Origin: Rhizodiscina lignyota | Lineage: Eukaryota | Direction of reading: 5' to 3' | Assembly: GCA_010015805.1 (NCBI GenBank) | Contig: ML978131.1 | Span: 124,001-188,000 of the forward strand | Length of the DNA stretch: 64,000 nt | Part shown: positions 21,152 to 41,038 of the stretch, in pieces | Layout: every line of letters begins with the position of its first letter | Numbering within the stretch: the first letter of the stretch is position 1 | Made by a program: the position numbers and the translations under genes | The notes under the pieces: model-generated | What the model was told of the DNA's origin: nothing | Database searches by the model: none | What the model saw: the letters and a program-made list of their open reading frames with translations, nothing else

Positions 21152-22699
21152 CTATTCCGGGATGGTATGATCAAGAGCCTCAACACCAGCTTTCCACCGA
21201 TACTTTGCCGCAGTATGCGAAGGGAGCGGTCCAGTCTGTCCCTTGGTGAGGTACAGGTTCTCGCGATATGTCCCTCCCGGAATTGCATAATCCTTCCAGA
21301 AGAGTCCTCGTCTACGTAGCTCCGGAATCAGGAGCTCTGCAACATCAACGAAAGAGCCTGGTTTGATCGCGTAGGCCTGCAAAGAGTCAGCATACAAACA
21401 TGAAAAGGAGACCCGTCAGTCAAATACAATGTTGAATCCGTCGACATCGGCTTCCTCGACCCATCGCTCGAACTCATCAGCAACCTGCTCGGGAGTGCCC
21501 ACCACCGTCGCACCGAGCCCTCCAATGGTAATGTGCTTGGCGACGGTATGCTTCGTCCATTTCGGTACAGACGGCGAAGCTTTAGACCACGCTTCAACAG
21601 CCGATCGAATGGCATTGCTCTCTACGTGCCGAAGTTCCTCGTCGTCTCCGTATGTTGAAAGGTCAATACCTGTCCAGCCGCCAAACAAGGCCAATGCACC
21701 TTCTATGGATCCGTACCGTTGATACTGATTAAACTTCTTCAACGCTTCTTCCTCTCTTCGACCGATTACGGGGCAGATTAGCGCCATGAACTTAATATCC
21801 GACGGATTGCGGCCGAACTGGTCCCTAGCCATTTGGCGAATCTCGGCAATATTCTTCGCGACAACGGAAGGACTATGGCCGGCAACGAATATACCTTCTG
21901 CATGCTGGGCGGCGAAGGTCTTGCCCGCCTTCGAAGTGCCTGCCTGTAAAAGAAGAGGAGTTCTTTGCGGTGATGGCTGACAGATATGAGGCCCTGGGAC
22001 GGTGTAGTGCTTTCCGACATGATTGATTTCGCGAACTCGTGATGGCTCTGTGTATATGCCGCGTTTCCTGTCGAGTACTACTGCATCATCCCGCCATGAT
22101 GATTCAAACAGCTTATACATCACTTTCATATACTCTTCCGCCACAGCATAGCGGTCGTCGTGAGCGGGTTGCTCTGTCGCTCCGAGGTTGCGTGCGGCAG
22201 AGTCGAGATAACCAGTAACAATATTCCACCCTATGCGGCCCTTCGTGAGATGATCTACGGTGGATAATCGTCGCGCGAGATGGTATGGCTGCTCATACGT
22301 AGTCGCCACTGTTACGCCGAAGCCGATGCTCTTCGTCGCTGCTGCCATTGCGGGAACAACTGCCTAATTGACATTTCTCACTGAGCTTTAATTCTACCCT
22401 CGGTCAATGCTCGCACTCACCAACGGTTCGTTCACAGGCCATTGAGCTCCAGAAATGATCGCAGGCTCCAGATTGCGTGGACCACGATATACATCGTAGC
22501 CTCCAAGCACATCTGCGATGAAAATTCCATGTATTTTGGCCTTTTCGCACAATTTCGCAAGCTCGACCCAGTGCTCTATGTCATTGAATTCCGAGGAGTG
22601 ATCGTCTGGATGCTGCCACAAGCCCGGCGATTGATGGCCGGAACATGATTCAACAAAGGCATTGAGAATGAGCTGCTTCTTGTGGGTGCCGTTCGACAT
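21152..22699 (-). CDS. Luciferase-like FMNH2-dependent monooxygenase, DszA/NtaA/SnaA family (paralog 1); 2 introns
   Basis: LILNAFVE.CSGHQSPGLW.HP, GIFIADVLGGYDVY, MAAATKSIGFGVT, RRLSTVDHLTKGRIGWNIVTGY, PSPQRTPLLLQAGTS, LLIPELRRRGLFW.DY..PGGTYRENLY. Confidence 0.92.
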
Positions 22700-23729
22700 G
22701 CTTGACGAAGTTGTGGAAATTTGGAGCTCAACTGACAACCGTCAAAGAGCAGCATTTGAAGGACCCGCCCATTCGACGCCATTGTGCGTTTGGGTCTGGT
22801 CTGGAAGCGCTGTTCCTTCACAAGGGCTTTTGATTTTTGTTGGCACCGATGGCGTGGTTACTCTTGCGTGCTTTGGACCCCGGTCGCCGCATTGCCGCAA
22901 TTGTGCAAACTATACCAAATAAAGGTTAGTGTCTGCGCCGACTCTTCTATCAAACAGGGGTCATCTGTCGTCACTCGTCCTCCGCCTCCGCTTTCCTGCT
23001 CTTCAACTCATGAACGCCATATCTGACATGTGCTGAAGCTGGACCAGGCATCCGAAACCGCAAGGCTACGAGTAGTGCGAGGAGCATTCATTCGCCAATT
23101 GGGCTAAGAGTCTACTGTGCTTCTCGCTTCCACGGATTAGAAGCTGCCGTCGAACAGCACACTGTGCCTCTTGGAGTTCCTTCAGCTGTGCTTTCCTACA
23201 TCTCTTATTTTATCTACTGCATGTGTATTGATTATTTGGCTCGATTCATCATTCAAAAGTCCAAATATAGAGAGATTAACAAGCGGCCAGTTTGACGTGA
23301 ACAGAATAAATATGAATACGCCTGCTACTTCTTATAGCCTTGGTAAATTTTCTTTAGGAGAACTTGAGGTCACTAGAGATCTCGCATTCAGCCACCCGAT
23401 CCCAAGGAACTAGCTCCTTAGCTGTCGAAGACTGCAAATTTGCGTCAACGAAGGGACCCACCGACGAGCACGCAATCCTGACAGAAGTGCGCTCGCTCAC
23501 AGTTTGTTACTTGATTTTATCCAGTCTAGACTGTCTTGCCCTCCCTCGAGTCAGATCATCATGAAGACTCGCTTCTATTGGCCCGTTATTGCCAACAACC
23601 TCGCAGTCCGGCTATGATGAGTTCTTCTGTTGATTCAATTCCCCGAGCTATTTGATATCTCCAGGATCCCGCCTCTGCAGAGGTAACTTTTCTCACAGTC
23701 ACTATTGGAGACTCTGAACAAACTTAGCA

Positions 23730-26279
23730 ATGAGTTCGTTGCACCAGCGAGCAGCAGTGTCTAGCAATGGCATTGAGCCGCCCCTGTCGCAAGCTGTCGG
23801 CTATGTCATTGTGCTTGTGGTTGGATTGCTTATCGCTTTTGGTATGCAAATTATCGCATTGTTGACAATCTGATGCTGACGAAGCCAGGCATGGTGTTCC
23901 TTACGAGATTGCTCAAGCGCACTGTCGGCGAGGACAATGCGAAGACAGAGATGTTCATGACAGCTAATCGCAGCGTTCGAACCGGCTTGACGGCATCAGC
24001 AGTCGTATCCGTATGTTTTAGTTCGCTTAAACCATGTTTAAATTGTAGCGATATATGTCTAACGGACAAATAGTCTTGGCTATGGAGTACCGCAATGCTG
24101 GGCTCATCCATCGTTGGCTACACAAATGGAGTCTCTGGTCCCTTTTGGTTTGCAGCTGGATGCAGTCCCATGATAGTCTTCTTCGCTCTGCTTGGAATAT
24201 CATGCAAGCGAAAGATTCCCGAAGCTCACACCCTTCTTGAGATTGTACGCATCAGATATGGTAAGAGATCCGAGCTTCAAGAGATGTGCAAGATTTCTTA
24301 CAGTGGAATGCCAGGCACCACGGCGCATTTCGTGTATATGTTTTTATGTCTAGTGAACAACATCATTGCCTGCGCGAATATGCTGCTTGGCGCCTCCGCC
24401 GTTATTACAGCAATGTAAGCACGGTTTAGTCAACTAAGGAGCATCACGCTGAAGAAGCTTAGGACTGGAATCCATATAATAGCAGCGACATTTCTCCTTC
24501 CTGTTGGTGTTGCACTTTATACTTTTGTGGGCGGCATAAAAGCTACGTAAGGATTAGACACTCCAGAGGTTTACATGACGCTTACCATGGCACAGGTTCC
24601 TGACTGATTACATGCACACGTTCACCATTCTCATAGTGCTCTGTTATTTCACTGCAAAGGCGTTCTCGATAGACGAAATTGGCTCGATCCAACACCTCTA
24701 CGATCTCCTCAAGGCCGCCGGGCAGCAGCATCCTGTCAGTGGAAACCATGACGGATCATACCTCACAATGACTTCCAAAGGCGTATGTAATGGTAACTTT
24801 ATGCAAGGAGCCAACTAAACAGAACCAGGGTATTGAGTTCGGCATCATCCATATTCTTGCCAACTTTGGACTTGTCATTGTACGGATCCCAGAAATAGTG
24901 TATAATAATTCGATAACTGACACCCCACTTTCAGATGGATACGAGCTTCTTCATCAAAGCGTTCTCGGCTGCTCCGTCATCAGTAGTTCCCGGTTACGTC
25001 GTAGGTGGCATAGCTTATTTCGCTATACCATGGGCAATCGGCACCTTGGCGAGCTCTATCTGCCTGGGACTCGAGACCACAAGCCCAATATTTCCAACGT
25101 ATCCTCGTGTATGGCTTCCTGTACGGATTATACATGATAACTATGCTAACCCCTGCGCAGAGACTGAGTACCACCGAAGTTGGAAGCGGTCTCATCCTCC
25201 CATATGCGTTTATCACGGTTGCTGGTAAGGGAGGAGCGGGCGCAATCGCGGTCATTACGTTCATGGCCGTCACTTCCACTCTGTCTGCACAGGTTATTGC
25301 TGTCAGCTCGATCATAAGCTTCGACATATATCGAACATACATCAGACCTGGTGCTACTGATGCCGATGTTATCCGTTGGAGTCACTACGGTGTTATCTTT
25401 TTCGCATTATTTGCCGCCGCCTTTAGTACGATGCTGCACTACGTTGGAATTGACTTGAGCTGGACATTGTATATGTTGGGTACGAAATCATACCACATGA
25501 TACGGGATTGGAATGCTAATCTGAGGAAGGCGTTCTTACATGTCCTGGTATCTTCCCGACAACATTCACCATTCTGTGGCGCAAGCAGAGCAGAGTCGCG
25601 GCCATTGTCGCTCCACTGCTTGGCATGGCTACTGGGCTAGGGGTATGGATCGGCACCGCTCATGCCTTCTCTGGAGAGATCTCTGTCGCTTCAACGGGCG
25701 CAGTGCTGCCGTGTGTATATGGCACTGCTGCGTCTGCGCTATCTCCAATCATTTACTCGGTAATCATCACGATTGTCAAGCCGGAAAACTACGACTGGGC
25801 AGACTTCAAGAAGGAAAAACTAGCGTTTGAGGTTGAGCATAGCACGACAGATATTGTGCAATCGGTCGACACGGAACTGGCAGATTCTGCGAGCAGTGTC
25901 CAGAAGTCACAAACCTTGAAACGATGGGCTCGCATCGCCGCATATTGGTCGATTGCCACGTTCCTTGGCCACTGGGTATTGTGGCCGCTTCCGATGTATG
26001 CTTCTCACTACATATTCGAAAAAGGCGTAAGTCACCGATAACTCATTTCTGCCACGAAGCTTTCGATGCTGACAAAAGCAGTTCTATGTCGCCTGGCTAG
26101 TCATTGGGTTTATCTGGCTTTGGATAACTCTATTCATTGTAGGTTTTTATCCAATAATTGACGGCCGTGATCAGATCTGGGCTGTATTGAAAGCTGTTCG
26201 GTCATCTCGTAAAACAGCCGAGCCCGACTCGAGTGCGAATAGCGCAACGGTAGTGGAGGTTCGCCAGGATGAGAAGTGA
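23730..26279 (+). CDS. Sodium:solute symporter, Dur3/urea-active-transporter family; ~10 introns
   Basis: PPLSQAVGY, EMFMTANRSVRTGLTASAVVS|SWLWST, GVSGPFWFAAG, AHTLLEIVRIRYG, YTFVGGIKA, FMAVTSTLSAQVIAVSSIISFDIYRTYI. Confidence 0.9.
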
Positions 26280-26312: not shown

Positions 26313-27836
26313 TTAGACCTGCTCTCCATTTTCACCGTTTTCACCGTTTTCACCGTTTTCTCCACTTTCTCCATTTTCTCCATCTCGTTTTCGCTTCGAC
26401 GACTCCCTGGCGTATGCGGGCTCAATCTCCCCAGCTTTCCAGAAATACTGCGCTCCGGGGTGGGTGTCCGACAGCCGATTCATTCCCTTGATACCCAGAT
26501 AGTTTTCTCTCAGTGTCCCTCCCGGGACAGCATAATCATCCCAGAACAAGCCTCTCCGTCTCAACTCTGGAAGCAGTAACCTGATAATGTCACGGAACGT
26601 CTCCGGGATTGATGCGTAGCTCAAGTTGAATCCGTCGACGCCAGAAACCTCAGCCCACTCTTCAAGAAGGTCTGCCACGGTCGTCGGACTGCCTATCAAC
26701 TTGGCGCCGTTTCCTCCAAGGACCAGCCAATCCGCAATCGTCTTCTTGTTCCACGTCAGGCCGTCCGGCGATATTGACGCCCAGTGATTCACCATGCTCC
26801 GCACTGCTGGTGGCGCTTTGTCGCTGAACCTGAAGTCTTCGTCATCGGAATACGTGCTCAGGTCGTATCCAGACCATCCGCCGAATAACGCAAGGGCGCC
26901 TTCTCGATCTCCGTACGAGGCCAATTCGTCATACTTCTTTTGTGCAGCTTCGTCGGTTTCAGCCACAACGACTAATAATCCAGTTACGATCTTGATACTA
27001 TCCGGGTCTCTTCCAGCCTCTGCTGCTTGCTTCCGTATGCTGTCGACAGAGGGGCGCACAAGCTCCGCAGTGTGTGCGTTGAGAAAGATCGCTTCGGCGT
27101 GGGTTGCGGCAAATGCGCGGCCTGCCGATGATGTTCCTGCCTGAAAGAGGAAAGGAGTGCGCTGTCTCGAAGGCTCGCAGAGATGCGGTCCCGGAACTTT
27201 GAAGTACTTTCCCTCGTGATTGATTTGTCTCACGCCTTCTGGATCCGCATAGGCCCCTCGTTTGTTCCCGGGCCGAAGTACTGCATCATCTCTCCACGAG
27301 CCTTCCCAGAGCTTGTAGGCCACTTGCATGTACTCGTGCGCCATACGGTAGCGCTCATCGTGCTCGATTTGCGTGTTCAGCGAGAAGTTCCTTGCTGCGG
27401 AATCGAGATATGACGTGACGATATTCCAGGCAACTCTCCCATTGCTAAGGTGGTCCACAGTTGAGAATCTTCTCGCAAGCGCATAAGGAGACTCGTATGT
27501 AGTTGAGGCGGTAACACCGAAGCCAATGCTTTCCGTAGCGGCTGCCATTGCCGGGATTGTGTATAGAGGATCGTTAATCGGGAATTGTATGCCGGCAGGT
27601 ATTGTCGGCGTGAGATTGGCAGGGCCCTTATAGACATCATAGCCGCCGAGGACGTCCGCGAAGAAGATTGCATGGAATTTCGCTTCCTCCAGCTCTTTTG
27701 CGATTGAGATCCAATGGTTGATGTCATTGTACTTGCGGCCTTCGTCTGCAGGATATTTGAACAGTCCAGGGTTCAGATGACCAGGTGCCTGCATGGCGAA
27801 GGCATTGATGATGAATTGCTTTTTAGGCTTTGCCAT
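26313..27836 (-). CDS. Luciferase-like FMNH2-dependent monooxygenase, DszA/NtaA/SnaA family (paralog 2), intronless
   Basis: Same family motifs as paralog 1: FFADVLGGYDVY, RRFSTVDHLSNGRVAWNIVTSY, EPSRQRTPFLFQAGTS, LLPELRRRGLFWDDY. Confidence 0.92.
   Translation of the reverse strand: MAKPKKQFIINAFAMQAPGHLNPGLFKYPADEGRKYNDINHWISIAKELEEAKFHAIFFADVLGGYDVYKGPANLTPTIPAGIQFPINDPLYTIPAMAAATESIGFGVTASTTYESPYALARRFSTVDHLSNGRVAWNIVTSYLDSAARNFSLNTQIEHDERYRMAHEYMQVAYKLWEGSWRDDAVLRPGNKRGAYADPEGVRQINHEGKYFKVPGPHLCEPSRQRTPFLFQAGTSSAGRAFAATHAEAIFLNAHTAELVRPSVDSIRKQAAEAGRDPDSIKIVTGLLVVVAETDEAAQKKYDELASYGDREGALALFGGWSGYDLSTYSDDEDFRFSDKAPPAVRSMVNHWASISPDGLTWNKKTIADWLVLGGNGAKLIGSPTTVADLLEEWAEVSGVDGFNLSYASIPETFRDIIRLLLPELRRRGLFWDDYAVPGGTLRENYLGIKGMNRLSDTHPGAQYFWKAGEIEPAYARESSKRKRDGENGESGENGENGENGENGEQV
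26322..26383 (-). repeat. 9-bp tandem repeat encoding (GEN)n at the C-terminus of DszA paralog 2
   Basis: TTTTCACCG/TTTTCTCCA units on the + strand; protein DGENGESGENGENGENGENGEQV*. Confidence 0.85.
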
Positions 27837-28375: not shown

Positions 28376-29476
28376 TTAATAGCATGCTTTAGTAATCCAC
28401 TGCAACATCGTTACATCCTTCTCATCTCTGCGCCCCTCGACGAAAGCCCAATCCTCCAAGACCTTGAAGCAATGATGCATATGCTGAGAGTGGACGTCAA
28501 TTGTGCATACATGTTCCCCGGACTCTTTAGCATTGAAATATCTTCGCATCGCTCTAACACAATGAGCTCGGTGGAACAGCATGTCAACCGGTGCAAAGGC
28601 TGTCTTCGACTCCAGCCAACCAGGGCTAAAGTGGAGGTTTCCGGCCACCACGCTATTCACTTCCGGATATCGGTTTTGAACCCATTCTTGATATCGCTGC
28701 TCTTCCTCTGTAACCAGAGCAGAGGGCACAAACGACTGGTCATCCAGCCGGACGATCCAACTCTCTGAATTGCCCTCTAAGTTCTCAACAAACCAATCCG
28801 TGACATTCTCTGTTGTCAATTTCGCATAGTTCTGCGGCCCCACGCTTCCAATCGGCTGACCATGATTACAGCGCTCGCAGGACAATAGTATTCGACTGTA
28901 CCAAGCCAAGAATAGCAGGCCTAAGCCGACCAACGATGCCACTGCAGCGCACGTAACGGGGGATGCCATGAGATATTTCAAAGATTTCCGTCCACGAATG
29001 CGCTCTATTGGATTCCGTGCGTGGAGATTGTCGTTTTCCTCGTCTTCGGTACTTTCACCATCATATTCTTCTCCCTTTTCGAAGCTCACCTCCGCCAGTG
29101 GACTTGGTTTCGACTTTGCATCGACTGTGCTTATCCTCAGATGATAGAATTGTTCGCGGTAAGGGGTCGCTTGGTCATCTATCGTATCTGAATATACTAT
29201 CGAGAGTGTTCGAGGACTGAAACGAGTTGCTTCCGAGAGGAATCGCCGGGATTGGAATAACGCGCCATCAAAAGAAGTTGATGGTATCTTGTGTGTAGGA
29301 GTCTGCCAGAGAACGTGGAGAGATTTATCCGCGGTTTCATCGACAGCAAAGGCTATCTGACATGCTCCGTAGGTCGAACGACACTTTTTAAGAGCCGCTT
29401 GAAGTTCTAATCGCTGACGTGTTGACGTATCAGGATACAAAATGAAAACTGACAAAGAGATATCAGAGCAATTCAT
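28376..29476 (-). CDS. DUF3328/UstYa-like HxxHC oxidase #1 with a long N-terminal extension
   Basis: One TM helix (AAVASLVGLGLLFLAWY) and two motifs, FHRAHC and QHMHHC; C-terminal Cys. Confidence 0.75.
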   Translation of the reverse strand: MNCSDISLSVFILYPDTSTRQRLELQAALKKCRSTYGACQIAFAVDETADKSLHVLWQTPTHKIPSTSFDGALFQSRRFLSEATRFSPRTLSIVYSDTIDDQATPYREQFYHLRISTVDAKSKPSPLAEVSFEKGEEYDGESTEDEENDNLHARNPIERIRGRKSLKYLMASPVTCAAVASLVGLGLLFLAWYSRILLSCERCNHGQPIGSVGPQNYAKLTTENVTDWFVENLEGNSESWIVRLDDQSFVPSALVTEEEQRYQEWVQNRYPEVNSVVAGNLHFSPGWLESKTAFAPVDMLFHRAHCVRAMRRYFNAKESGEHVCTIDVHSQHMHHCFKVLEDWAFVEGRRDEKDVTMLQWITKACY

Positions 29477-29934
29477 TGCGAAGTGGAAAATTTAGCTTTG
29501 TGTGTGAGTTGTGAGGGATAAACTCGAATAGCCAGAGCTAAGAGTCAAGACGCAGTCAACCAGCAGTCAATGTGGGAGTGATTTTCAAGAAATCAACAGT
29601 GCCGATGGCTGGGACGGTTCCTTGTATGGCCTCAGTACGGAGCACCCTCGCTGATACCCTTGTCAAGCTGACGCTCAAAACTCCCCTGTAAACAGGCTGC
29701 GTACGTTTTACCTTTGAGAGGCGCTCCACCCGGATCTGTAAATACCCCAGCATTCTCACGTAACTTATTTTTGCTATCGGCGCTCCTTGACGTTTGTTCA
29801 GTATTTCCTGTTTTCAAGCCCCTAAATGCTCCCTTCCAGACTTCCAAGCAGGGGCTATTGAATTATACACTTTGTTCGATTCACACAGCTCAGTGCGCAA
29901 TTCATATTTCTAAATTAGACGTTCATCGACGGGT

Positions 29935-31063
29935 ATGACCACGATGTGGATCGGCTGGAGAAAGTCCTCGGATGCTACGCTTTTGTACTCTTCGTTGCCG
30001 ACTGGAGAAGGCGACGTTAGCGAGAAAGCCAAAACTCTCTCCGAAGACGACTCGAACAATGGGAATGGAGCACATAGCCGCGACTACGTACGAGTAACCG
30101 ACCGACGGGCCCTCTTGCCTTGGCTGCTTTGCTGCGTATTGCTTGCTCTATTGGCTTGGGAGACACTGAAGGAGAAGAGATGTGAGACTCCTGCCTGGCG
30201 CGGAACGGACTTTGGTAAGTTTAGGAAGCGAATACCATGCCGATCAGCACAATGCTAAAAGGTTCCTCAGTGCCTGCCCGGAACGCCATCAGAACGAAAG
30301 AGATCAAGTTCAAAAGCGGCCTCAAGTTCATCGACAACGAAACAATGATAAGAACTTTCGACCCTCATGATCCTGTTTATGTCGGCACACCGAACGAAGA
30401 AATCGATCGCAATTGGGCTAATATTGCCCTCCGTAAGCATTAATCGAAACATCGAGCAAGCCTTCAATTCGGCTAACCGAAACATAGCGCAAGAGTTTTG
30501 GATCACAAGAGAAGAAGCTGCAGGATTACCGTATTCCGACCTCTACCTGATTGAAGAGTATGGCCTTTACCAAATAGAGTGAGCTTTACCCGATTGCGAT
30601 ATAGGGTAGCCTCCAACTGTTAACATCCTGCAGAATCGAATCGTTTCACTCTCTGCATTGTTTGGTAGGTGGATGTCCCCGGCTTCTTGTTCTAGAGCTG
30701 ACCACTGGAGAACTTAATTCGAAAGTATATTTACCGAGATCACTATCCAGGGCTTGTCACTCCAAATTTTGAAGCTCATATTGGTATGCCTTCTGCCGCG
30801 CTGTCTCTGTCGATCCAATGTTCTAACCACAAGCCGTAGAACATTGTATTGAGGCGTTAAGAAGCTTCATCATGTGCACTGGAGATATGACCCCAATACC
30901 AATGCCGTGGTCAGACGAAAAGCAATTAATGGTTCCCGACTTTGAAGTTACGCATACTTGTCGGGACTGGGAAGCTTTGCGGGAATGGGCTGCATCGCGT
31001 GATGCGAACCATAATGGTATAAGACAGGCAAACGCTCGCAGACTCTCTTCGCTACAAACATAG
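29935..31063 (+). CDS. DUF3328/UstYa-like oxidase #2 (canonical type); ~6 exons
   Basis: TM helix, GTDF|, YVGTPNEEIDRNW, SFHSLHCL|NLIRKYIY, HI|EHCIEALRSFIMCTGDMTPIP, PDFEVTHTCRDWEAL. Confidence 0.9.
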
Positions 31064-31244
31064 CCTCACAAAGAAGATAATCATGCAGTGTGGGGAAATC
31101 GCCTTACAGGACTGGATGATTATCGAAGCAAAGCCAAGGTATTCGAGCCAACTCCAAGAGCGTATGGACGTAGAATTGAAATAGCAGTAGTCAGAAATGT
31201 GCAGATAGGAATCTCTTTACGCTACAGCCACTTTCAACATGCAG

Positions 31245-31891
31245 CTAATCAAAATCTATACATGCGTTGAACTTCCTCTCCAATCTGGTGAAATTCCTTG
31301 GGTTGCTCAGCATATCCAGCATGATCTCTGCACAGTGTTCTGTATGCCGATGGCTGTACGCGTCATTATCCAGAATGTCTCCATCTGTGATAGCCCATAG
31401 CTGCCTTTTCCATAGATACATGCAGTGACTGGTATGATAATCAGGTGTTGTGAAGACGACCTTATACTCTCCATGCTCTATTAGCTCCCTTGACACTGCT
31501 TGGGTGAGCTCAGAGTCCTTGAAGAAAGTCCAGTTCCCTTGATTCATGTAATATCTCGACAGCCTCTGTGTCCTTTCAGGGAAACATTGTGGTTGCATCC
31601 ACGCTATTCTGGCCTTAGATGTGTGTCATAACATAACAAATGACTGGGGCTCTCACCTCCCATCATGGGATCGAATAAGCATCCATTGATTTGAGCCTCT
31701 TCTGCAGAAGAGCCACACGTTTGGAGATGCAGCCGACGACCGTTGTGCGTGCCATCAAACAGCTTTGGCCACCAGATAAGGGAGCATACAATTGTGCCCG
31801 AGGCAATACCAAGAAAGAAAAGTGAGAATAATAAAGCCCGAGATTTCAAGCGAGTTTGAGACATGGAAGCGATAAGAATATTCCTGCGCAT
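31245..31891 (-). CDS. DUF3328-like HxxHC oxidase #3 (CGSS.EEA..GC.FD subtype); one intron
   Basis: TM helix, CGSSAEEAQINGCLFDPMMG|AWMQPQC, YHTSHCMYLWKR, RHTEHCAE. Confidence 0.8.
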
Positions 31892-32249
31892 GTAGCAATG
31901 ATGGTTGCCGTCACTCTAGTGGCAGGATCAGGTGTCGTGGTATTACATATACGTTTGTCCGGGTAGTCAATGATGGTCACTATGAAGCTAAAGCGTTATT
32001 CACCACCCTAGATTAGGAGATGGACTATTTGTCAAGATTTGCTTTTACCGATCCCTACCTACTCCGGAACCGTTAATCACCGAGATGAGCTAAGATTTAT
32101 TTATGATTGCGTTTCGTTATCATTGCCTCCAGCTCGTTTCCAGCTAAGACAGATACGAGTCATACATCTGGAATCACAGACATAACTATTGAGCATAAGT
32201 GTGAATTGGTAGTACCTCCCGCTACGCCTAATTGTGCTTATGTCGAGAG

Positions 32250-32256
32250 TATAAAG
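32250..32256 (+). promoter_or_regulatory. TATA box upstream of the small precursor gene
   Basis: TATAAAG lies 159 nt upstream of ATG 32409, which has a good AAAATG context. Confidence 0.45.
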
Positions 32257-32408
32257 ATGTCCACGTCCTCTCTGAGAGAACATACATTAAAATTCGTCCT
32301 TCACTGTCATCACTGCCTCGCCACTTCACAAAGTTGAATCAATCCGTAAGCCCTAATCATCCTCGTAGACACGAGTTGAATTCTGATTACACCTTAGTCC
32401 AGACCAAA

Positions 32409-32579
32409 ATGCGCTTTACAAGCCTCCTCAGTCTTGTCGCGATCGCGATCACCTCGGTGTCCGCTCTGCCGGTGGCAGATGCAGCAAAAGCGATGAAGAT
32501 GCTTCACGTTCGAGATGCCGACGCCACTGCTGCCGCCAAAGCTGAGCCATATCTGATTTGCGTCAATTGTAGCTACTAG
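32409..32579 (+). CDS. 56-aa secreted prepropeptide, candidate RiPP precursor (predicted core YLICVNCSY)
   Basis: Signal peptide MRFTSLLSLVAIAITSVSA|LP, pro-region ending VR, then DA-DA-TA-AA-KA-EP and C-terminal YLICVNCSY*. It sits among five HxxHC oxidases and a tyrosinase. Confidence 0.75.
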   Translation: MRFTSLLSLVAIAITSVSALPVADAAKAMKMLHVRDADATAAAKAEPYLICVNCSY

Positions 32580-33402
32580 CGTATGTTTGATTTCTCCACT
32601 TTCGTCGACCACACTAACACGCTCAAGGCATCTGGAGCATCAAGAAGGGTCTAGCACGTAGACGATCAACTGGCAATCTTCAGAATTTCTGGCGAGGAAG
32701 AGGATACTTCAGCGGACCAGCCATATTACTTCTGTCACTTAGATCACTTAAATTACTCAAATTACTCAACAATTGTTGAATCTTGTCAAAGTTCACTTTT
32801 AATGCGGTGAAGTTAAGCTCAAGCCGGTACGAATTACAGGGTCAGGCATAATAACCGACCGCCGACGCGCTTAACCTGTTCAAGCCATTGTGCAAGCTAT
32901 CCGTATCCTGATCCTGATCGCGTGTCCACCACTGTCTGTAACTGATAAAATCGTTGCAACACAAGTACGATAACGCGCAATAAGATTTGGCGTGTCTTTT
33001 TACCGGTTAATAGGGAACTCTCTCACCATCTCGAGCGACATTACAGCTGCACGATCGCAAGCTAATTTCTTAATCTTTATTTTTCGCTCTACAACCGGAG
33101 ATGTAAACCAACAACAAGACTTTAATCCGGGGAAACGCTACGATAATGGAAAAGTACGCCACGCACCTTAGCACCTATCTCCTAACTAGGCTAGCGTTCT
33201 GTTTTCCCGCATCACCCTTCAACGTGTTTCTTCAGTGTGTCGGCATTACCTACGATAGAGTACGGCCGCCACGGCCGCCACGGCCGCTCCAGCCGCTTCT
33301 TTATGAAGTAGGCGAGACACATTTTGCTAGAGCATGCAGTGAGCACGAAGTAGTGAATATCGTGGTTTGATTAAAGGCGGAAACGTCTGAAGGAGAGAAC
33401 GC

Positions 33403-33485
33403 TCTGGGCACACCCCTGACAGTTGACTCCCAAGGCCTGACTCCGCTGAGTGCCCTGCTCCAATCATATTGTCAGGGGTTCCCAG
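33403..33485. repeat. Imperfect inverted repeat (hairpin) just left of the MITE
   Basis: TCTGGG..ACCCCTGACA is complementary to TGTCAGGGGT.CCCAGA. Confidence 0.5.
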
Positions 33486-33510
33486 AAGGTCCTAGTGTAC
33501 GAAGGATATA

Positions 33511-33670
33511 CAGAGGGTAACCGCGTCGGTTCGCAAGCTTGCTACCTTGAAGCCACACGCTATGCCAAAACACATTAATTTGGGCCGTATTTTTAAGCCG
33601 AAACGCTCAGGACAGCTCAAGTAGATGGCTTTCCACTAGCAGGCATGCGAACCGACGCGGTTACCTTCTG
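33511..33670. mobile_element. 160-bp MITE, Tc1/mariner-type
   Basis: TIRs TA|CAGAGGGTAACCGCGTCGGTTCGCAAGCTTGCTA ... TAGCAGGCATGCGAACCGACGCGGTTACCTTCTG|TA. The 20-bp core is a perfect inverted match (33516-33535 vs 33646-33665), with TA on both sides and no coding capacity. Confidence 0.75.
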
Positions 33671-33932
33671 TAGTATCTTACCTATCCAGGCAGTAAACGC
33701 ACAGGCGGATTTCCTCTCTTGCATCAATCCACGAGCTCGCTGTGTGCTTCCGACACAGACTTTGCCTTGTATCTATAAGCGCTAAAACTGAAGGACAGGA
33801 TTTTCACGGTCCATATTCGAGCGTGGCTGTAGACGCGGACCATCAAACGAACTCTAAGTTTATCACTTCCTAGCCGAAATTGTAATATCACAGACGTACA
33901 CCAGTCTGAAAGCCCGTAGCTCTGATTATTAA

Positions 33933-34331
33933 TCACGGCGCTGCGTCGGTGCTTGTTTCACCGCCATCCTCTACTGCTCCCTTAGCAAGCAAGCCACTTT
34001 CTTCAGAGTCATCCTGTGCATCCACTCTTTTATCAACAGATCTTCGGGAAAGAAGGAAGAACGCCCCCGAAGTTACCAAGGATATCAGGAGGACCGTAAG
34101 AGCCGCAAGGTTTTGAAGTGTGCTCAGCCCAATCGTTCGGCTCGAGCTGTTGTTTCCGAAGTTTAGGGCGTTCGTCGTGGCCAGTGGTGGAGGCGTCCCG
34201 GGAAGCGTCAGATTCTCCTTATCGTAACTTGCTGTTGCATAGGGAGTTGGGTAGGTGTCGTGTGCGTGCATGTAGTACCATGTGCCGCCAATCTCGAGCA
34301 CGCTGAGGATATCGCTTGCCGCTGTTGACAT
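33933..34331 (-). CDS. Hypothetical 132-aa single-TM protein inside the RiPP cluster
   Basis: ATG-initiated ORF with one hydrophobic helix (LAALTVLLISLVTSGAFFLL) and an acidic tail; divergent from oxidase #4. Confidence 0.45.
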   Translation of the reverse strand: MSTAASDILSVLEIGGTWYYMHAHDTYPTPYATASYDKENLTLPGTPPPLATTNALNFGNNSSSRTIGLSTLQNLAALTVLLISLVTSGAFFLLSRRSVDKRVDAQDDSEESGLLAKGAVEDGGETSTDAAP

Positions 34332-34883
34332 TGCGGTTTGTTGCCTCTTAACCTAGGGCCTAGGCCGAAGAGTATCGGAATTAATTATGAAAGACTCGGA
34401 CCAAAAATTCTAAAGACGAAGACTGAAAGACGGTTGAAATGAAAGAGCGGACAGAGTCGGTATTGAATCTCACTTCCCAGCAAGTATCGAATCATTTCGA
34501 TAAGCTAAGTGATTATTTTTGTCCTTCCACAGCTCAGAATAGGGGAGCATTTCCTCACCCTGATTTCGTATAGCCGAAATGACTGCACGCTGACAGATAC
34601 GTATGCATTAAGATCTGCCCTTGACACGGTCCACTGTCACAAGGGGGCAATTAACAGTTGACAACCTGAAAGGATTGACGTTAGTCCCGTTGATCATCAT
34701 GTGCAGTCCATGAAGCTCAGAGACACTTCGGATTGAGTAATTTGGCGACACCGTACGACTCAGCAGCTTCTTTCGTACCCTTTCCGGTAGTAACATTCTC
34801 AGTCTTAATTCTCGACCACTTGAAACTTTCTACGACACGGCCGGTTCTACAACTATAAAACACCCATCATCAGATTTGCATCC

Positions 34884-35492
34884 ATGGCCTTCTACCACCG
34901 ACTGCATCACGAGGACCAAAACTCAAGCGAAGAAGAATTGGCTCGGACATTCGTACCGCGCTCGACGAAGCCTGTTTTGACCTCAATCATTGGGATCGTT
35001 GCGGGAATCGGCACAATCATTCTGATTACCTCTGCTCTGTTCTACAGACCATGGCATCACCAAGAGATCAAGAGCTGCGGCAGCAGCCCTGAGGAAGCTG
35101 AGAGGAATGGTTGCAAGTTCGACATCATGATGAGCGCGTGGTTACCCTCTCAGTGTTCCAATCGTACCCTGTCCGAAGAATATTTAAACCAATACAATTG
35201 GCAGTGGTACGCGGATCCGCAACTCGTCGAGGTATTTTCTCTCGAGCAAATGCGAAAAGGGCAGCATCGCTTTGCTTGGACTACTCCGGATTTCCACGTC
35301 ACGCACTGTGCTTACATGCTGGAGCGAATGGTTCGGTCGATGAAAATGGACGGTGAAAAGTGGGCGGACAGCGATTCAGTCGATATCAAGCATGTGCATC
35401 ATTGCGCAGACAGCCTGTTGCAGGAACCGTATAATAAAGATGGAAATTTCACACGGGTCATGGTTGGATATCTCTCATGTGTCAAATTATAG
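34884..35492 (+). CDS. DUF3328-like HxxHC oxidase #4 (CGSS.EEA..GC.FD subtype), intronless
   Basis: TM helix, CGSSPEEAERNGCKFDIMMSAWLPSQC, FHVTHCAYMLER, KHVHHCAD; TATAAAA ~30 nt upstream. Confidence 0.85.
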   Translation: MAFYHRLHHEDQNSSEEELARTFVPRSTKPVLTSIIGIVAGIGTIILITSALFYRPWHHQEIKSCGSSPEEAERNGCKFDIMMSAWLPSQCSNRTLSEEYLNQYNWQWYADPQLVEVFSLEQMRKGQHRFAWTTPDFHVTHCAYMLERMVRSMKMDGEKWADSDSVDIKHVHHCADSLLQEPYNKDGNFTRVMVGYLSCVKL

Positions 35493-35567
35493 ATTGTGGA
35501 TTTGACAGTGGACAGGTCGTATAGTCCTAACGAGCCGAGAGGTGCTATGCGACTTCCTTACAATGCA

Positions 35568-36694
35568 TTAGTTTTCATGATTGGAGTCTGATGGTTTGCC
35601 ATGTTGATCGCCTTTGAGATGGTCCTCCATCCAAATCTTCTCCTGATCAGATATCTCAAATCCTTGCCTTTGTATACCCTTTGTCCAGTTCGGGCTGTCA
35701 CCAGTAGTATTGCGCTTTGAGGCCCAGTCCCACACATGGTCAAAATTCTTGCATTCAAACGTCTGCATGTGGGAGAGGCTATAAGCATAGTGCTCCTCTG
35801 ACCATTCAAACGTTTGCGGTGTTATATCACCACTGCACATTAGGCCCACGCGAATATGCTCCAGGCAATGATCTTTCAGCAATCAGTAGAGGCAATCGAA
35901 AGCGGTAGGGCGCAAGTCAAACCTAAGTGAAATTCCCACCAGCTCAAAGGACCGTCATTTTGCCAGTTAAGATCAACAGGGCGCCAGATCTGCTCCCTCA
36001 GCATCGACTGCAAGTGGTCAATTAATCTCTTTCGGGTGCAAAGAGAAAATGAAACGTACCAGACAGTGTAATTCATGAAAGACGTTTAACTCTGTCATAT
36101 ATTTCCCTGGATTGCGAATATCTTTCGCACTCGAATGAACCATTCGAGCGTGTTCCTCGGGCGAGATGCTCACCATGCCAACTTCAATTGCTCTATCAAC
36201 ACTCATTGTTCTGGCAGATAGGTACTTGGGTACATACCACTGAGTAGTTTATCCCAAGCGCCATCGGATATGTTTGAAGGGCGTCCCATGAAATCTGATG
36301 GGGAATTCACCCCGTCATACTCCAATCTCCCAGTTGTGAGGTGGAGATCATCGTATATATCTGAAAACATCAGGATCGAAACATATATAGAAGCAATGGG
36401 GTTGATACTCGGCCAAGCAGGTCCATCAGCCTTGTCGTCACTCTCCCATTTGATGCCAATGCCCATCCATACTGCCCCAAAGATAGAGAGCTCGAAAGAT
36501 ATTAGGAGGAAATGAAGGATCCATGGCAAATACTGCAAGACGCGCCTCTGCTTGCCATTCCATCGAACGATATTTTTGGTGAACTTCTCTTGCTGAGCAT
36601 GATCTTCGAAGTCGGGGTCTGATAAAAGCGTAACGGATGTCTCTTCCTGTTCTATCCCATGGGTGTCGTTGGGTACTGGGTGATACTCCGCCAT
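35568..36694 (-). CDS. DUF3328/UstYa-like oxidase #5 (canonical type); ~5 exons
   Basis: TM helix, FMGRPSNISDGAWDKL, LNVFHELHCL|SMLREQIW, FHL|DHCLEHIRVGLMCSGDITP, FECKNFDHVWDWA. Confidence 0.9.
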
Positions 36695-37284
36695 ATCGCA
36701 ACGCTTGAAAATTGTACAGGTGAGTCGTACGGAGTGACTGTGGTACGGTTGTAATGAGGAGCCTCGCTCGAGGGTGTCTTACAGCCCTAAATGTCAGCGG
36801 CAAACTCCGACTTGGATCGGCAACATGATTCTCGAAAAGAGAAACCATATTAATCAGAGTTAAGGAGTAGTAGCTTATGGGACATGGGTGGTTCGTAGCA
36901 TATCTCGCGTCATCCCTGAAGCCAGCCGGAAATGGTAGGGCTACTTTAGTGCTGACATGATTGAAATAAAGCTCTGGGCTAATACAGGGATTCGTTAACG
37001 GACTCTACGGGCGGCTTCCTTAACCTAGTGCCCGTGAATCATTCAGCTTGAATCCAGCTCGACAGTTGTCAGTCCGGCTGGCCAGGCTTCCCCACTCACG
37101 TGTCGCATTAGAGAACTCGCATCGTCCTGGATATCGCTCTGACTCTCGCGGTCCGGATGGTTCCACGCTCATTGTATATTCCAATACCAGATGAGGTACA
37201 AGATGAAGATGAAGGAGCAGAGATCGAAACTGAAACGAATGAGTATGGCTCTTCTTGGAAGATGTTGTAACCTGTTCTGTACTG

Positions 37285-38482
37285 ATGATGTACAGCGCCA
37301 CTTCCTCAAGTCTACCAACCTCGAATCCTTCACCGTCTTTTAACTGGACTTTGCTGTCGTGGCTTGGTTTACTCGCTCTTATAGTGGTGGCTATTTTTCT
37401 ACTCAAAAGTCACACCGGCAAGTCTGTCTCGCACAGTGGGTCCAGTGAACTGCTTCGCCAATGCAGCAATGCCACTCTTCGAAGAGAATGGAGAAGCCTT
37501 TCGACAGCGGAAAAGCTAGACTACGTTGAAGCCGTCCAGTGCTTATACAAGAAGCCCTCTCCAATGAGGCCAAATACCACAATATACGAAGATTTCGCTT
37601 GGACGCATAATCGCCACGCCAACGAAAGTAAGAATCAATGAAGGAGTGTGGAGTAACATGTTGAGCTAACGCCACACTGAAGCCCATCAAACGGCAGCCT
37701 TGTTACCGTGGCACAGATACTATATTTCGATCTACGAAAAGGCATTACAGCATTACTGCGGGTATAAGGGAACTTTGGTGTAAGGCCCCCCCCTTGCTGC
37801 AGAGAAACATTTTACTGACGGCTTCGAAGATACTGGAACTGGGCACTCGACTGGGAAGAGCCCGCCAATTCTCCAATCTTCGATCCCGACACGGGCTTGG
37901 GAGGGGATGGCATTGCTGGCGGTGCTGTGACACCTTCGTTCGGACATTGCCTGCATGACGGGCCCTTTGCACATTTCAGAGCACTATACGTGAACTCAAG
38001 ATATGCTCCTCATTGTCTCGCTCGAGGATTTGGGGATGCAAATCAACAGGGCCGATTCTCGGGATCCCCGTACAGACCGCAAGCCATGAAAGAGATACTG
38101 GCAGCTGAAACTTATGAAGCATTCTTGGAGCGGCTGCTTTCGGCACATCGCGCGGTTCACAACGGGGTCGGCGGAGATTTCCAAAGTAACACGGCGCCAT
38201 ACGGTAGATTCCGACAGTTTATCACCCTTTGGTCGTTGCTGATTCGCTGTTATAACAGATCCGTTGTTCTTCCTGCATCATACCCAAGTCGACCGTCTAT
38301 GGTGGATATGGCAACATAAGAAGGCGGATTCGAGGTTGACAGATTACAGCGGAAATGTTGATATATCCAGTAATGAGTCGGCCTCTCTTGACGATCCACT
38401 GCGCATGGATCCCATGGCGGCCACAGTAATGGTTTCTACTGTAATGAGCACAGAGACAGATCTTCTTTGTTACTCGTATTAA
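37285..38482 (+). CDS. Tyrosinase (di-copper centre) with N-terminal TM anchor, UstQ/PhomQ-like; 4 exons
   Basis: LRREWRSLSTAEKLDYVEAVQCL; CuA region H..H..LLPWHRYYI; YWNW; CuB region HRAVHNGVGG..APY|DPLFFLHHTQVDRLW; ends LCYSY. Confidence 0.9.
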
Positions 38483-38733: not shown

Positions 38734-39335
38734 ATGAAGGAACCCTCGAATACTCGAGCATAGTGCTTTCAAGAACGTATGCTTTCGCGACGCGTGCTCG
38801 ATTACGGAACCACACAACTGCGACTTATTTGCCGAAGCAAAAGCTCTTCGCCATGAAGGTCAACACGACACGTTCTCCACTGATCCAGGCTTGGACGATA
38901 GGGGAGGCTGTGCCAAAGCGAAAAAGCTTTCAGAGAATTATGGCAAGAAGTCGCTACTCTCACATCAAAACTTCAAAAGTAAAGTTGTTGCAGGGAAATC
39001 CGCTTCAGGTTTAGGTGGTCGTCCCATTACGGTTTAGCTCATTTTTCTGAGAGCTGTTTTAGCATGTGTTAAAATTTGTCACAATTGTGACGTTGCGCGC
39101 ATGTCAAGCAAAGCCTTCGGTCCGCCAAGAGCCCCCCTAATGGCTGCTGACCGTTACTGCACAGGCCGATCAGCATAACTCTCCGGCTGGGCGACCTCGC
39201 AAGGTTTACCAGGAACAGCCGTCGCTCCACTACCTACAGTTTCTCCCTTCGCTCATAACCTCTTCTTCTTCTCATGCATCCCCGTTAATCATTGAACTTG
39301 TTAACGTCGGACCGCGTGCAGCACTTGGCAACATC

Positions 39336-41038
39336 ATGGCAGACCCTCCTATGATAAAAAGAACACGAGCACGCGTGCCAAGAGTGCGGACTGGATGCAT
39401 CACCTGCAAGTGCGTTTCTTACATTTGTGTCAAGCCTTGAGGAAACTGACAGGGACCCAAAGGATACGACATCTCAAGTGCGACGAAGAGAAGCCATCCT
39501 GTCGACAATGCATCTCCGCTGGCTTCAAGTGTGATGGCTACAAGCCTCCCCAACCAACCAAGCCTCGAGAGACCGCAGCGACGAGCACTTCGGTCGATGT
39601 TGTAGCACCGCTGGCAGCCCAGAAGAGACTGTTGCCAAATCCTGGTTGCTACGAGCTCAAGCTGTACCAGCGCTACGTAGCTCCGAAGCTCTCCAGTTAC
39701 TCTGACGCTGGTTTTTGGAACGTTCTTATTCCGCAAATGTCACAGACAGAGCCTGCAATACGACACGTGGTGGTTGCGATCTGTGCTGTGCACAGGGATA
39801 TTGAGTCTATTCGCAGCTACTCTCGACTGAGCGTCCTCCGGCCTAACCCTCTGGCCATGAAAGAGGCCAGCCAGGCCATGCAAAGCCTCTCGCAGAGGAT
39901 CAACTCGGATCCCAGTTCAAGCCTTGTTCCCCTAGTCGCCTGTCTGCTCTTTACGTGCCTAGAGCTTCTCTGTGGCAACTTCGAAACTGCAATCGTCCAC
40001 GTGGCGAATGGCTTTAGGATCCTCAACGGTCTCAGTTCTGCTGAGCTTGCCGGAAGGTCACATCAACAGATCGCAGAAACGAACACGATTGAGAAGGAGG
40101 TCGCACCGGTATTCCAGCACCTGAGCGTGCTTTGCCTGCTGTTCGGGCAGACGCATGCATTCGATACTGCCGGCCATGTTGCAACAACAGAATTCGCTAC
40201 GTTCACATCGTTGGGAAACGCCCGACTTAATCTGTTCGAGCTGTTCAGCCAAGTCTTCCGCTTCATCAAAGTTGCCAGTAATAAGGCTGATAAGGGGAGC
40301 ATTGACGTGACAGATCTCATTGAAAAGGTTAAATTTGAGCGGCGGCTGCAGCACTGGTACAGCTGTATGGAGCAGTATGTAGAAACTGCAGCCAAATCAG
40401 GCCGCCATGTCGACGAGAATGCGGTGAATATCTTGCGCATGCACCACCGTACCATACTTGTTTGGCTCTCAGTGTGCCTCTCCGTAGACGGAGCTGACCT
40501 CGATCTTCACACATCCAACTTTGAAGAAATTGTCCGCCTCTGCGAGAGCATCGCGCGTAATTCACCCGGTTCAACAACCACCTCGCCGCCCCAAACACCA
40601 GGACATAATAAATTCTCATTTGGCATGGGTATGATACCATCACTCTACTGGGTTGCAAGGGAGTGTCGCGATTCCACAATCCGTAAAAGGGCGTTGGACC
40701 TGCTCCTAAAAGCGCCACTCCGCGAAAGTCTTTGGGATGCGCACGTTTTTTCCAAGATTGCCGAGCGCGCCAAGGCTATAGAGGAGTCTCAAAAGCACAG
40801 TCAGAAAACGCTCTCTCCGGAAGACTGCTTGCGAGGAGGTCTCTCATTGACGTCAGATCATAAAATTCGTCCTGAGCTACCTGTACACAACTTCAAACGT
40901 GTCCGGACTTACAGGATCCACAACACTCTCATTTCGAACAACTGGTCTGCCGATCAAAGATCAAGAGTCACGTTTCGTGCGAAGCCATGGGGACCACTCG
41001 GCGCATGGCACATATGGGATGATTTTGTCTATCTATGA
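39336..41038 (+). CDS. Zn(II)2Cys6 transcription factor; one intron ~39410-39461
   Basis: RVRTGCITCK|IRHLKCDEEKPSCRQCISAGFKCDGY, plus fungal TF middle region FWNVLIPQMSQTEPAIRH..ACLLFTCLE. Confidence 0.88.

Follow-up and report, generated by a model that had tools for sequence, protein, structure and literature searches.

Which substrate does a fungal cluster of UstYa (DUF3328) genes act on when it holds no precursor gene with repeated cores? The question is raised by a 64,000-nucleotide (nt) stretch of the dothideomycete Rhizodiscina lignyota (contig ML978131.1 of assembly GCA_010015805.1, positions 124,001 to 188,000; hereafter the window, in whose own numbering all coordinates are given). 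A core cluster of 13 kb, at ~28.4-41.0 kb of the window, has in its middle an open reading frame (ORF) of 56 amino acids (aa) on the forward strand, 32409-32579 (P0001). We suggest that this ORF encodes a precursor of the dikaritin type, i.e. one dependent on UstYa/DUF3328 enzymes, with a single core at its C-terminus, and that the surrounding cluster makes the product. Judged from the sequence, this reading is moderately probable; it draws on the content of the cluster, the lack of another candidate substrate, the chemistry of the core, several signs of a real gene, and a ladder of dipeptides in front of the core. The locus would then work like the systems that make ustiloxins and phomopsins, with a divergent precursor architecture, and we regard the ORF as a good candidate, not as a demonstrated gene.

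A candidate precursor and the enzymes around it

The ORF translates as MRFTSLLSLVAIAITSVSALPVADAAKAMKMLHVRDADATAAAKAEPYLICVNCSY, 56 codons that are followed by TAG at 32577-32579; its stop-to-stop frame opens at 32232, and 32409 is the first in-frame ATG. Residues 1-19 (MRFTSLLSLVAIAITSVSA; 32409-32465, +) are a predicted signal peptide, in which R2 makes the n-region basic, a hydrophobic stretch without charges follows, and V-S-A occupies positions -3/-1 before L20, as called by a heuristic -3/-1 rule together with hydropathy. A pro-segment of residues 20-35 (LPVADAAKAMKMLHVR; 32466-32513, +) ends in the monobasic H-V-R, and is followed by six in-phase X-Ala/X-Pro dipeptides (DA DA TA AA KA EP; residues 36-47, 32514-32549, +) and by the candidate core YLICVNCSY (32550-32576, +). 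Read in phase from residue 20, the region before the core gives LP VA DA AK AM KM LH VR DA DA TA AA KA EP: six X-[AP] pairs directly precede Y48, and three more directly follow the predicted signal cleavage site. Six in-phase dipeptides before Y48 match the STE13 signature of alpha-type pheromone precursors. An earlier, preliminary description of this DNA had given the same ORF, layout, dipeptide phase and core position, all of which agree with our translation and in-phase reading, and it had called residues 1-19 a signal peptide, the features of which are present by the heuristic check.

That description missed what is the strongest chemical clue. The first four residues of the core, YLIC (residues 48-51), contain the sole Y-x-I of the peptide and fit YxIx, the core pattern published for ustiloxins and phomopsins. 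As described by Umemura 2020, Tyr1 and Ile3 are common to the cores YAIG, YVIG and YVIP and are joined by an ether bridge; the core has been generalised as 'YXIX', and the Tyr-Ile cyclisation requires a tyrosinase plus DUF3328 proteins (PMC7329392; this and the other papers cited here are represented by parts of their text).

Both kinds of enzyme are encoded around the ORF. Five UstYa-like genes, here called A to E, each have two HxxHC motifs (eight of them read directly, the second of A and of B split by an intron), and two such motifs are a proposed mark of peptide-related DUF3328 proteins (PMC12048977). Genes A (29935-31063, +; FHSLHC, and AHIEHC split by an intron; Pfam UstYa E 1.8e-12 for the last exon) and B (35568-36694, -; FHELHC, and HLDHC split by an intron; E 1.2e-12 and 5.1e-8) are classical multi-exon UstYa genes that pass the Pfam cut-off. 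The other three are divergent: C (34884-35492, +; 202 aa, with a transmembrane (TM) anchor) reaches E 8e-5 and 23 bits vs a cut-off of 25; D (31245-31891, -; two exons with an intron at 31656-31604, and a TM anchor) was recognised by its motifs; and E (28376-29476, -; 366 aa) has a UstYa-like C-terminal domain that Pfam finds at only E 0.17. For A, B and D, exons and introns were traced by eye in the sequence. A and B are paralogues (tblastx E 1.1e-10), as are C and D (tblastx E 3e-23), and D runs divergently from the ORF on the opposite strand, with its start 517 bp away. The cluster further contains a tyrosinase, a di-copper centre protein (37157-38482, +, the extent being that of source model P0005 mapped by tblastn; Pfam Tyrosinase E 1.2e-6), and a Zn2Cys6 transcription factor (39305-41038, +, given as its stop-to-stop frame; Pfam Zn_clus and Fungal_trans_2). 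The UstYa/DUF3328 neighbourhood that the preliminary description had proposed as a check is thus present, with a tyrosinase in addition. All five UstYa-like proteins, and the N-terminus of the tyrosinase when read from its ORF, have a hydrophobic anchor, and the substrate should therefore be a peptide of the secretory pathway.

Within 20000-46000, Tandem Repeats Finder returned 12 rows, all of them micro-repeats, and neither a coding repeat nor a precursor of the repeat type was found there. Protein families were sought in 55 translations (51 of the 187 ORFs of at least 90 aa in the window, plus four shorter ones); no non-ribosomal peptide synthetase (NRPS) or polyketide synthase (PKS) was found among them, and the longest ORF in the window encodes a 927-aa IQ/CH protein.

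Based on this, we propose that the 56-aa prepeptide would enter the endoplasmic reticulum through its signal peptide. In this compartment, the catalytic parts of the tyrosinase, itself anchored in the membrane, and of the UstYa pair A/B are expected to face the lumen; together these enzymes would close an ether macrocycle from the oxygen of Tyr48 to Ile50 on YLI(C), giving a ring as in ustiloxins and phomopsins, while the three further UstYa-like proteins C, D and E might make other oxidative changes. The 28-residue N-terminal pro-region would be taken off, possibly in two stages: an endoprotease would cut after Arg35, and an enzyme of the Ste13/DPAP (dipeptidyl aminopeptidase) type would then strip the six dipeptides one by one and halt at Tyr48. 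For linear YLICVNCSY, the calculated [M+H]+ is 1077.4744, which becomes 1075.4587 on loss of 2 H and 1073.4431 on loss of 4 H; that of YLIC is 511.2585.

Signs of a real gene and the end of the product

The length of the ORF is unremarkable, as five ATG-initiated ORFs of at least 40 aa occur in the same 2-kb gap (31892-33932). The dipeptide ladder is moderately unlikely to arise from composition (P 0.008-0.031): when residues 20-56 were shuffled, 0.8% of the permutations contained a run of at least six X-[AP] dipeptides, and 3.1% did when only residues 20-47 were permuted (200,000 shuffles each), with a statistic that was picked after the pattern had been seen. Of the 537 small ORFs (25-200 aa) that the window contains, 21 pass a crude signal-peptide rule, and within the cluster the 56-aa ORF is the sole clearly intergenic small ORF with a long uncharged h-region.

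The codon-usage log-odds of the ORF, 0.119 per codon, is the top score of the six frames and falls at the 36th percentile of 279 confident-exon windows (mean 0.151, standard deviation 0.094); among 239 small ORFs, 11.7% score as high or higher. The GC content rises to 56% at 32400-32499 vs 40-44% in the preceding 400 bases. TATAAAG stands at 32250-32256 (+), 159 nt upstream of the ATG, and is weak on its own; the start context, CAAAATG, is A-rich. The gap that holds the ORF measures 2.0 kb, as compared to 75-590 bp between the other cluster genes. A codon score within the range of exons, the rise in GC, the TATA box, the start context and the long gap are together what we regard as signs of a real gene. 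An out-of-frame upstream ATG is also present right after the TATA box; it opens a 27-codon frame (32257-32340, +) that ends 69 nt before the main ATG, and is relevant only if transcription begins upstream of the TATA box.

A pattern search revealed an intron-like element of 47 nt (32581-32627, +) that begins 1 nt past the stop codon and consists of GTATGT (32581-86), ACTAAC (32613-18) and a final AG (32626-27). It is the only match in the window, where 0.05 were expected and 4 of 100 shuffles gave at least one. Its acceptor is AAG, not YAG, and no intron pattern of the GTATGT/ACTAAC type with a YAG acceptor occurs in the window. The presence of a canonical intron-like element on the strand of the ORF supports a real gene, and suggests that the region is transcribed and spliced.

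The ORF is unannotated: it is missing from protein collections in which two of its neighbours on the 1.1-Mb contig are present, an exact look-up of the 56-aa peptide in these collections gave no match, and its matches in the ESM Atlas all score below 0.8 and are uninformative. This is consistent with the earlier remark that gene callers often drop such ORFs, but says nothing of function. In genomic DNA run X1, the Logan contigs are colinear with the window and identical to it over 29800-36800. We infer that the 56-aa ORF is most likely a real, unannotated gene that would be expressed as a substrate for its neighbours.

The intron-like element also bears on where the product ends. The intron would be of phase 1, and the in-phase frame behind it (32628-32778, +) is open for 49 codons vs 8 and 10 for the other two frames. 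A 49-codon open frame has a shuffle P of 0.053, and 22.5% of window positions have at least 49 open codons ahead of them. The codon score of this downstream frame, 0.016, is neutral; the frame reads as a basic, Leu-rich, low-complexity text, and contains a DNA tandem repeat at 32746-32769. We believe that this downstream sequence is probably a 3' untranslated region, while it could also be a lost or alternative second exon. A lost second exon or the use of alternative donors within the ORF would retain residues 1-51, including YLIC, and would alter or drop the VNCSY tail. For this reason, no part of the preliminary description is less secure than its 'nonapeptide with Tyr at both ends': YLICVNCSY followed by a stop is indeed encoded, but the boundary is uncertain, and the element 1 nt past the TAG had been missed.

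Counter-evidence, rival explanations and known systems

Several findings weigh against a single-core precursor made by this cluster. No homologue of the peptide was found in a word-indexed search of 5.8 billion proteins (30-98 aa; two candidates, none at E<=10), in a HMMER search of 1.84 billion representatives (none at E<=0.001), or in metagenome contigs (597 pattern matches, none confirmed). The nine core codons score -0.115, although they are too short a stretch to weigh, and codon bias is weak across the cluster (0.004-0.134 for the neighbouring genes), so that the coding score discriminates poorly here. The 55 scanned translations include neither a methyltransferase nor a peptidase. When metagenomes were scanned with an alignment of the C/D family, one locus was returned (L001), in which the relative stands alone, with no cluster, and among genes that look like housekeeping genes as judged from their ORF translations. 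Non-ribosomal pathways also use DUF3328 enzymes (PMC12048977). The intron-like element together with the in-phase open frame behind it, which leaves the C-terminal end of the core uncertain, belongs here as well.

The proposed processing adds to these difficulties. No KR, RR or KK occurs anywhere in the 56-aa peptide, whose only basic residues are R2, K27, K30, R35 and K44; of these, a cut after R35 alone leaves the ladder in phase, while a cut after K44 does not. Kex2 tolerates some non-basic residues at P2 and favours aliphatic ones at P4. Cleavage by Kex2 after L-H-V-R, as the preliminary description had it, is nonetheless an assumption, given that the peptide has no dibasic site, and other secretory endoproteases are just as possible for this cut. 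The preliminary description had also proposed alpha-factor-like trimming by Ste13. According to Le Marquer 2019, in the part of the text at hand, the STE13 signature is generally confined to alpha-type pheromone precursors, and is absent from precursors of the ustiloxin type (cyclic-tetrapeptide toxins) and from those of epichloecyclins (PMC6339444); a Kex2/Ste13 route is thus without precedent in the class. That Kex2 and then Ste13 would act to give exactly YLICVNCSY appears unlikely to us. The combination of such a ladder with a dikaritin-type core would be new for the class, which is also a reason for caution.

How, then, could the same observations be explained otherwise? The ORF may be a product of chance within a long divergent promoter or 3' region, in which case the enzymes would act on a non-ribosomal compound or on a substrate whose gene lies elsewhere. 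The other ORFs in the same gap, the frequency of signal-like N-termini and of equal codon usage among the small ORFs of the window, and the lack of a homologue in protein or metagenome searches can all be read in this way; in addition, DUF3328 proteins also occur in PKS and NRPS pathways, and a precursor might lie outside the cluster (PMC12048977). Chance would, however, have to account for the coincidence of a signal-like N-terminus, the ladder, a Y-x-I at the end of that ladder, the best codon score of six frames and an intron-like element, all of this at the centre of the cluster and beside a UstYa-like gene, and no NRPS or PKS was seen among the scanned translations. We therefore consider a chance ORF unlikely.

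Two further explanations accept a real gene, and we hold both to be improbable. According to one of them, the ORF is a real precursor whose product is not bounded by the TAG, either because a second exon has been lost or is used alternatively, or because the gene is a truncated remnant. The phase-1 intron-like element right after the stop, with its in-phase frame longer than the other two, agrees with this, and so do two weak donors, at 32569 (GTAGCT, phase 1) and 32562 (GTCAAT, phase 0), which would remove the stop and lead to products of ~102 aa and 59 aa, respectively, both of which still contain YLIC; use of the 32562 donor would also place an RR pair in the sequence after YLIC. Donors usually have the form GTRNGT, from which both of these upstream GT sites deviate, whereas the strong donor GTATGT stands after the stop. 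The neutral codon score, the tandem repeat, the low-complexity text and the ease with which 49 open codons are found in the window likewise speak against a coding exon downstream, and the Logan contigs match the assembly at the TAG with no differences at a depth of 155, although they may share the data of the assembly. The other explanation, which we rate no higher, is that the gene is real and encodes a small secreted peptide left unmodified by the cluster, i.e. a single-copy alpha-factor-like pheromone or hormone precursor, or an ordinary Cys-containing secreted protein. X-Ala/X-Pro ladders are a hallmark of ascomycete alpha-type pheromone precursors (PMC6339444), single-copy precursors of alpha-pheromones are known from Paracoccidioides and Histoplasma (PMC3464258), and residues 1-31 give a weak match to Pfam MF_alpha_N (E 0.014). 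This match, however, reaches 15.7 bits vs a cut-off of 22 and lies mostly over the signal peptide; the peptide has no KR, RR or KK site; and the nonapeptide has neither the two-Cys pattern of WCTRPGQGC nor the PYGxPxG motif of Dothideomycetes, as these are given in the available portions of PMC3464258 and PMC6339444. Mating-factor genes are reported, in the part of PMC7329392 at hand, without accompanying DUF3328 genes, whereas this ORF lies between five.

The single-core precursor that we favour can be set beside the systems already described. The locus resembles the subclass of ustiloxins and phomopsins because of its set of enzymes and its core motif, while the architecture of the precursor differs. 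Like the ustiloxin cluster (with UstA, UstQ and UstYa/UstYb), it combines a secreted precursor, a Tyr-x-Ile-x core, a tyrosinase and a zinc-cluster regulator (PMC6514808, PMC7329392), and two of its UstYa proteins, each with two HxxHC motifs, are homologues of one another. In contrast to UstA, in which 16 YAIG repeats are flanked by ED and KR, we observe one C-terminal core, no KR, an X-Ala/X-Pro ladder in place of ED, and a longer possible core with two Cys; no ust-type methyltransferase, P450 or flavin monooxygenase was found among the scanned translations. Phomopsin biosynthesis (PhomA, PhomQ) is similar in having five DUF3328-type genes plus a tyrosinase, and a Y-x-I core of more than four residues (PMC7329392). 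It is different in that PhomA has eight KR-flanked repeats and that a methyltransferase and an S41 peptidase are present there (PMC6514808), neither of which was found here, and in that C, D and E are too divergent for the Pfam UstYa cut-off.

Precursors of the alpha-factor type share with the ORF a signal peptide, X-Ala/X-Pro pairs right before the mature peptide, and a short peptide with two Cys (PMC6339444, PMC3464258). The likeness extends to the single-copy precursors of Paracoccidioides and Histoplasma, which are small, unannotated, intron-bearing ORFs with a C-terminal 9-residue peptide with two Cys (PMC3464258). Unlike these, the present ORF has no dibasic Kex2 site, no pheromone motif and only a sub-threshold match to MF_alpha_N, and has DUF3328 genes as its neighbours. 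A further parallel is found in the single-repeat genes that resemble gigA (of the epichloecyclin type), which were noted in Aciculosporium take and Periglandula and are non-repeated candidate substrates of DUF3328 proteins, predicted from genomes only; in contrast to our ORF, they were recognised through homology to a repeated family and have kept their Kex sites (PMC10540207). For lichen clusters, single-core dikaritin precursors have been hypothesised, with no precursor identified in the part of that work at hand (PMC12048977), while here a concrete orphan ORF is at hand. The preliminary description had stated that dikaritin precursors are multi-repeat. Repeated cores are indeed typical, with the single-core case a hypothesis in the available text of PMC12048977 and PMC6514808, but since single-repeat gigA-like genes have already been noted (PMC10540207), the non-repeated form is not wholly new. 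In the open literature, as opposed to subscription-only papers, which our search did not cover, we found no characterised single-core precursor that depends on UstYa; a search for Rhizodiscina lignyota by name returned no work on its peptides, and the genus is not mentioned in three supplementary files of PMC7329392.

The class assignment depends on which definition is used, and we compared the locus with the definition based on DUF3328/UstYa (PMC12048977) and with the five-gene definition of Ding et al. as quoted there. The UstYa proteins with two HxxHC motifs place the locus among dikaritins by the enzyme-based definition, and Tyr at position 1 with Ile at position 3 agrees with the core of ustiloxins and phomopsins. 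Of the features in the five-gene definition, a tyrosinase is present, as is a leader or signal peptide of the precursor (by the heuristic call), while no methyltransferase was found among the 55 scanned translations, and no transporter or peptidase among those of the core cluster. Repeated cores with Kex2 sites of the KR type, which this definition and that of KEPs both include, are lacking; without a dibasic Kex2 site and without repeats, the ORF falls outside the classical definition of a precursor, a further point against our reading. The ORF also lacks the dibasic Kex2 site, the mature-peptide motif and the MF_alpha_N gathering score of alpha-pheromone precursors.

As mining relies on repeated, KR-flanked cores, UstYa clusters without a repeat gene are left as orphans. 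We speculate that the locus might be the founding case of a hidden fungal class, in which precursors with a single C-terminal core are trimmed along a ladder in the style of alpha-pheromones, replacing Kex2 repeats, and in which a tyrosinase and five UstYa-type oxidases form a Tyr-Ile ether plus a cross-link derived from CxxC; we regard this broader proposal as rather doubtful. If it were true, many 'orphan' UstYa clusters, e.g. those of lichens, would have one-core precursors that are invisible to repeat-based mining. Were the candidate itself confirmed, the rules of precursor searches would widen: whether repeated or not, a C-terminal YxI behind a signal peptide would count if encoded near UstYa genes. 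It would also be the first link of Ste13-type trimming to a UstYa-dependent class of peptides, and the product would be a new macrocyclic scaffold with two cysteines. The locus offers a concrete candidate: a compact, apparently intact cluster with one small secreted ORF, the C-terminal part of which starts with YxIx, as do the cores of ustiloxins and phomopsins, which are antimitotic. Refutation of the precursor would mean that intact UstYa/tyrosinase clusters can act on substrates encoded elsewhere.

Neighbouring genes and minor observations

Genes C, D and E, the protein P0004 from ENA, and the gene at 904-1719 of L001 form one family of ~200-270 aa with a TM anchor, the motifs C-G-[ST]-S-x-x-E-A...G-C-x-F-D and two HxxHC. 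Its members do not reach the cut-off of Pfam UstYa, and exon 2 of D and P0004 do not match that model at all; as far as its motifs tell, the family looks to us like an uncurated subfamily related to UstYa. In the ESM Atlas, gene C falls into Ascomycota-wide clusters of 'hypothetical proteins' without a Pfam family (score 0.95). Apart from the window's own fragment, a search with gene C yielded a single protein, 34% identical and from a 2.4-kb contig; the fragment is the collection model P0003 (35079-35420), of 114 aa and without a start codon, whereas the ORF in the window is intact at 202 aa. A structure model of gene C, built from an alignment of four sequences, was unusable (mean pLDDT 43.1, pTM 0.28).

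The tyrosinase model P0005 begins with a short first exon (37157-37243) and has no hydrophobic N-terminus. In the same region (37157-37641), an alternative in-frame start at ATG 37285 would place a TM anchor (WTLLSWLGLLALIVVAIFLL) before the same NATLRREW, and this anchored form would better suit a lumenal enzyme. Among longer proteins, a search with the tyrosinase returned only the window's own protein. The tyrosinase ends in ...LLCYSY (38470-38479) and the precursor in ...NCSY (32565-32576), i.e. both have Cys, one or two residues, Ser-Tyr and a stop, which is probably a coincidence.

Each of the cluster's five promoter regions contains a single copy of the hexamer AACCGT, counted on both strands (29614, 32068, 34430, 36745 and 39029). 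These make up 5 of its 18 copies in the window, in regions that account for 3.9% of the sequence, an enrichment that is marginal after ~2,000 hexamers tested. The hexamer could, from its placement, be a site for the cluster regulator; as the ORF and gene D share a promoter region, it cannot tell the two apart.

Between the 56-aa ORF and gene C lies an annotated ORF of 132 aa (33933-34331, -; an exact match to P0002), whose membership in the cluster is uncertain. The N-terminal part of its protein is rich in Tyr (TWYYMHAHDTYPTPYATASY) and the tail is acidic; the protein also contains N-x-S/T sequons and a single TM segment, belongs to no Pfam family, has no signal peptide, and is unlikely to be a second substrate.

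Outside the core cluster, transporter fragments of the MFS and SSF families are found at 24-26 kb and 46.7-47.8 kb. To the left of the cluster, a sodium:solute symporter (24000-26050, +) is accompanied by two genes for luciferase-like monooxygenases (21416-22741, -, and 26313-27836, -). The 507-aa monooxygenase ends in a tail, GENGESGENGENGENGENGEQV, that is encoded by a 9-bp tandem repeat at 26323-26383.

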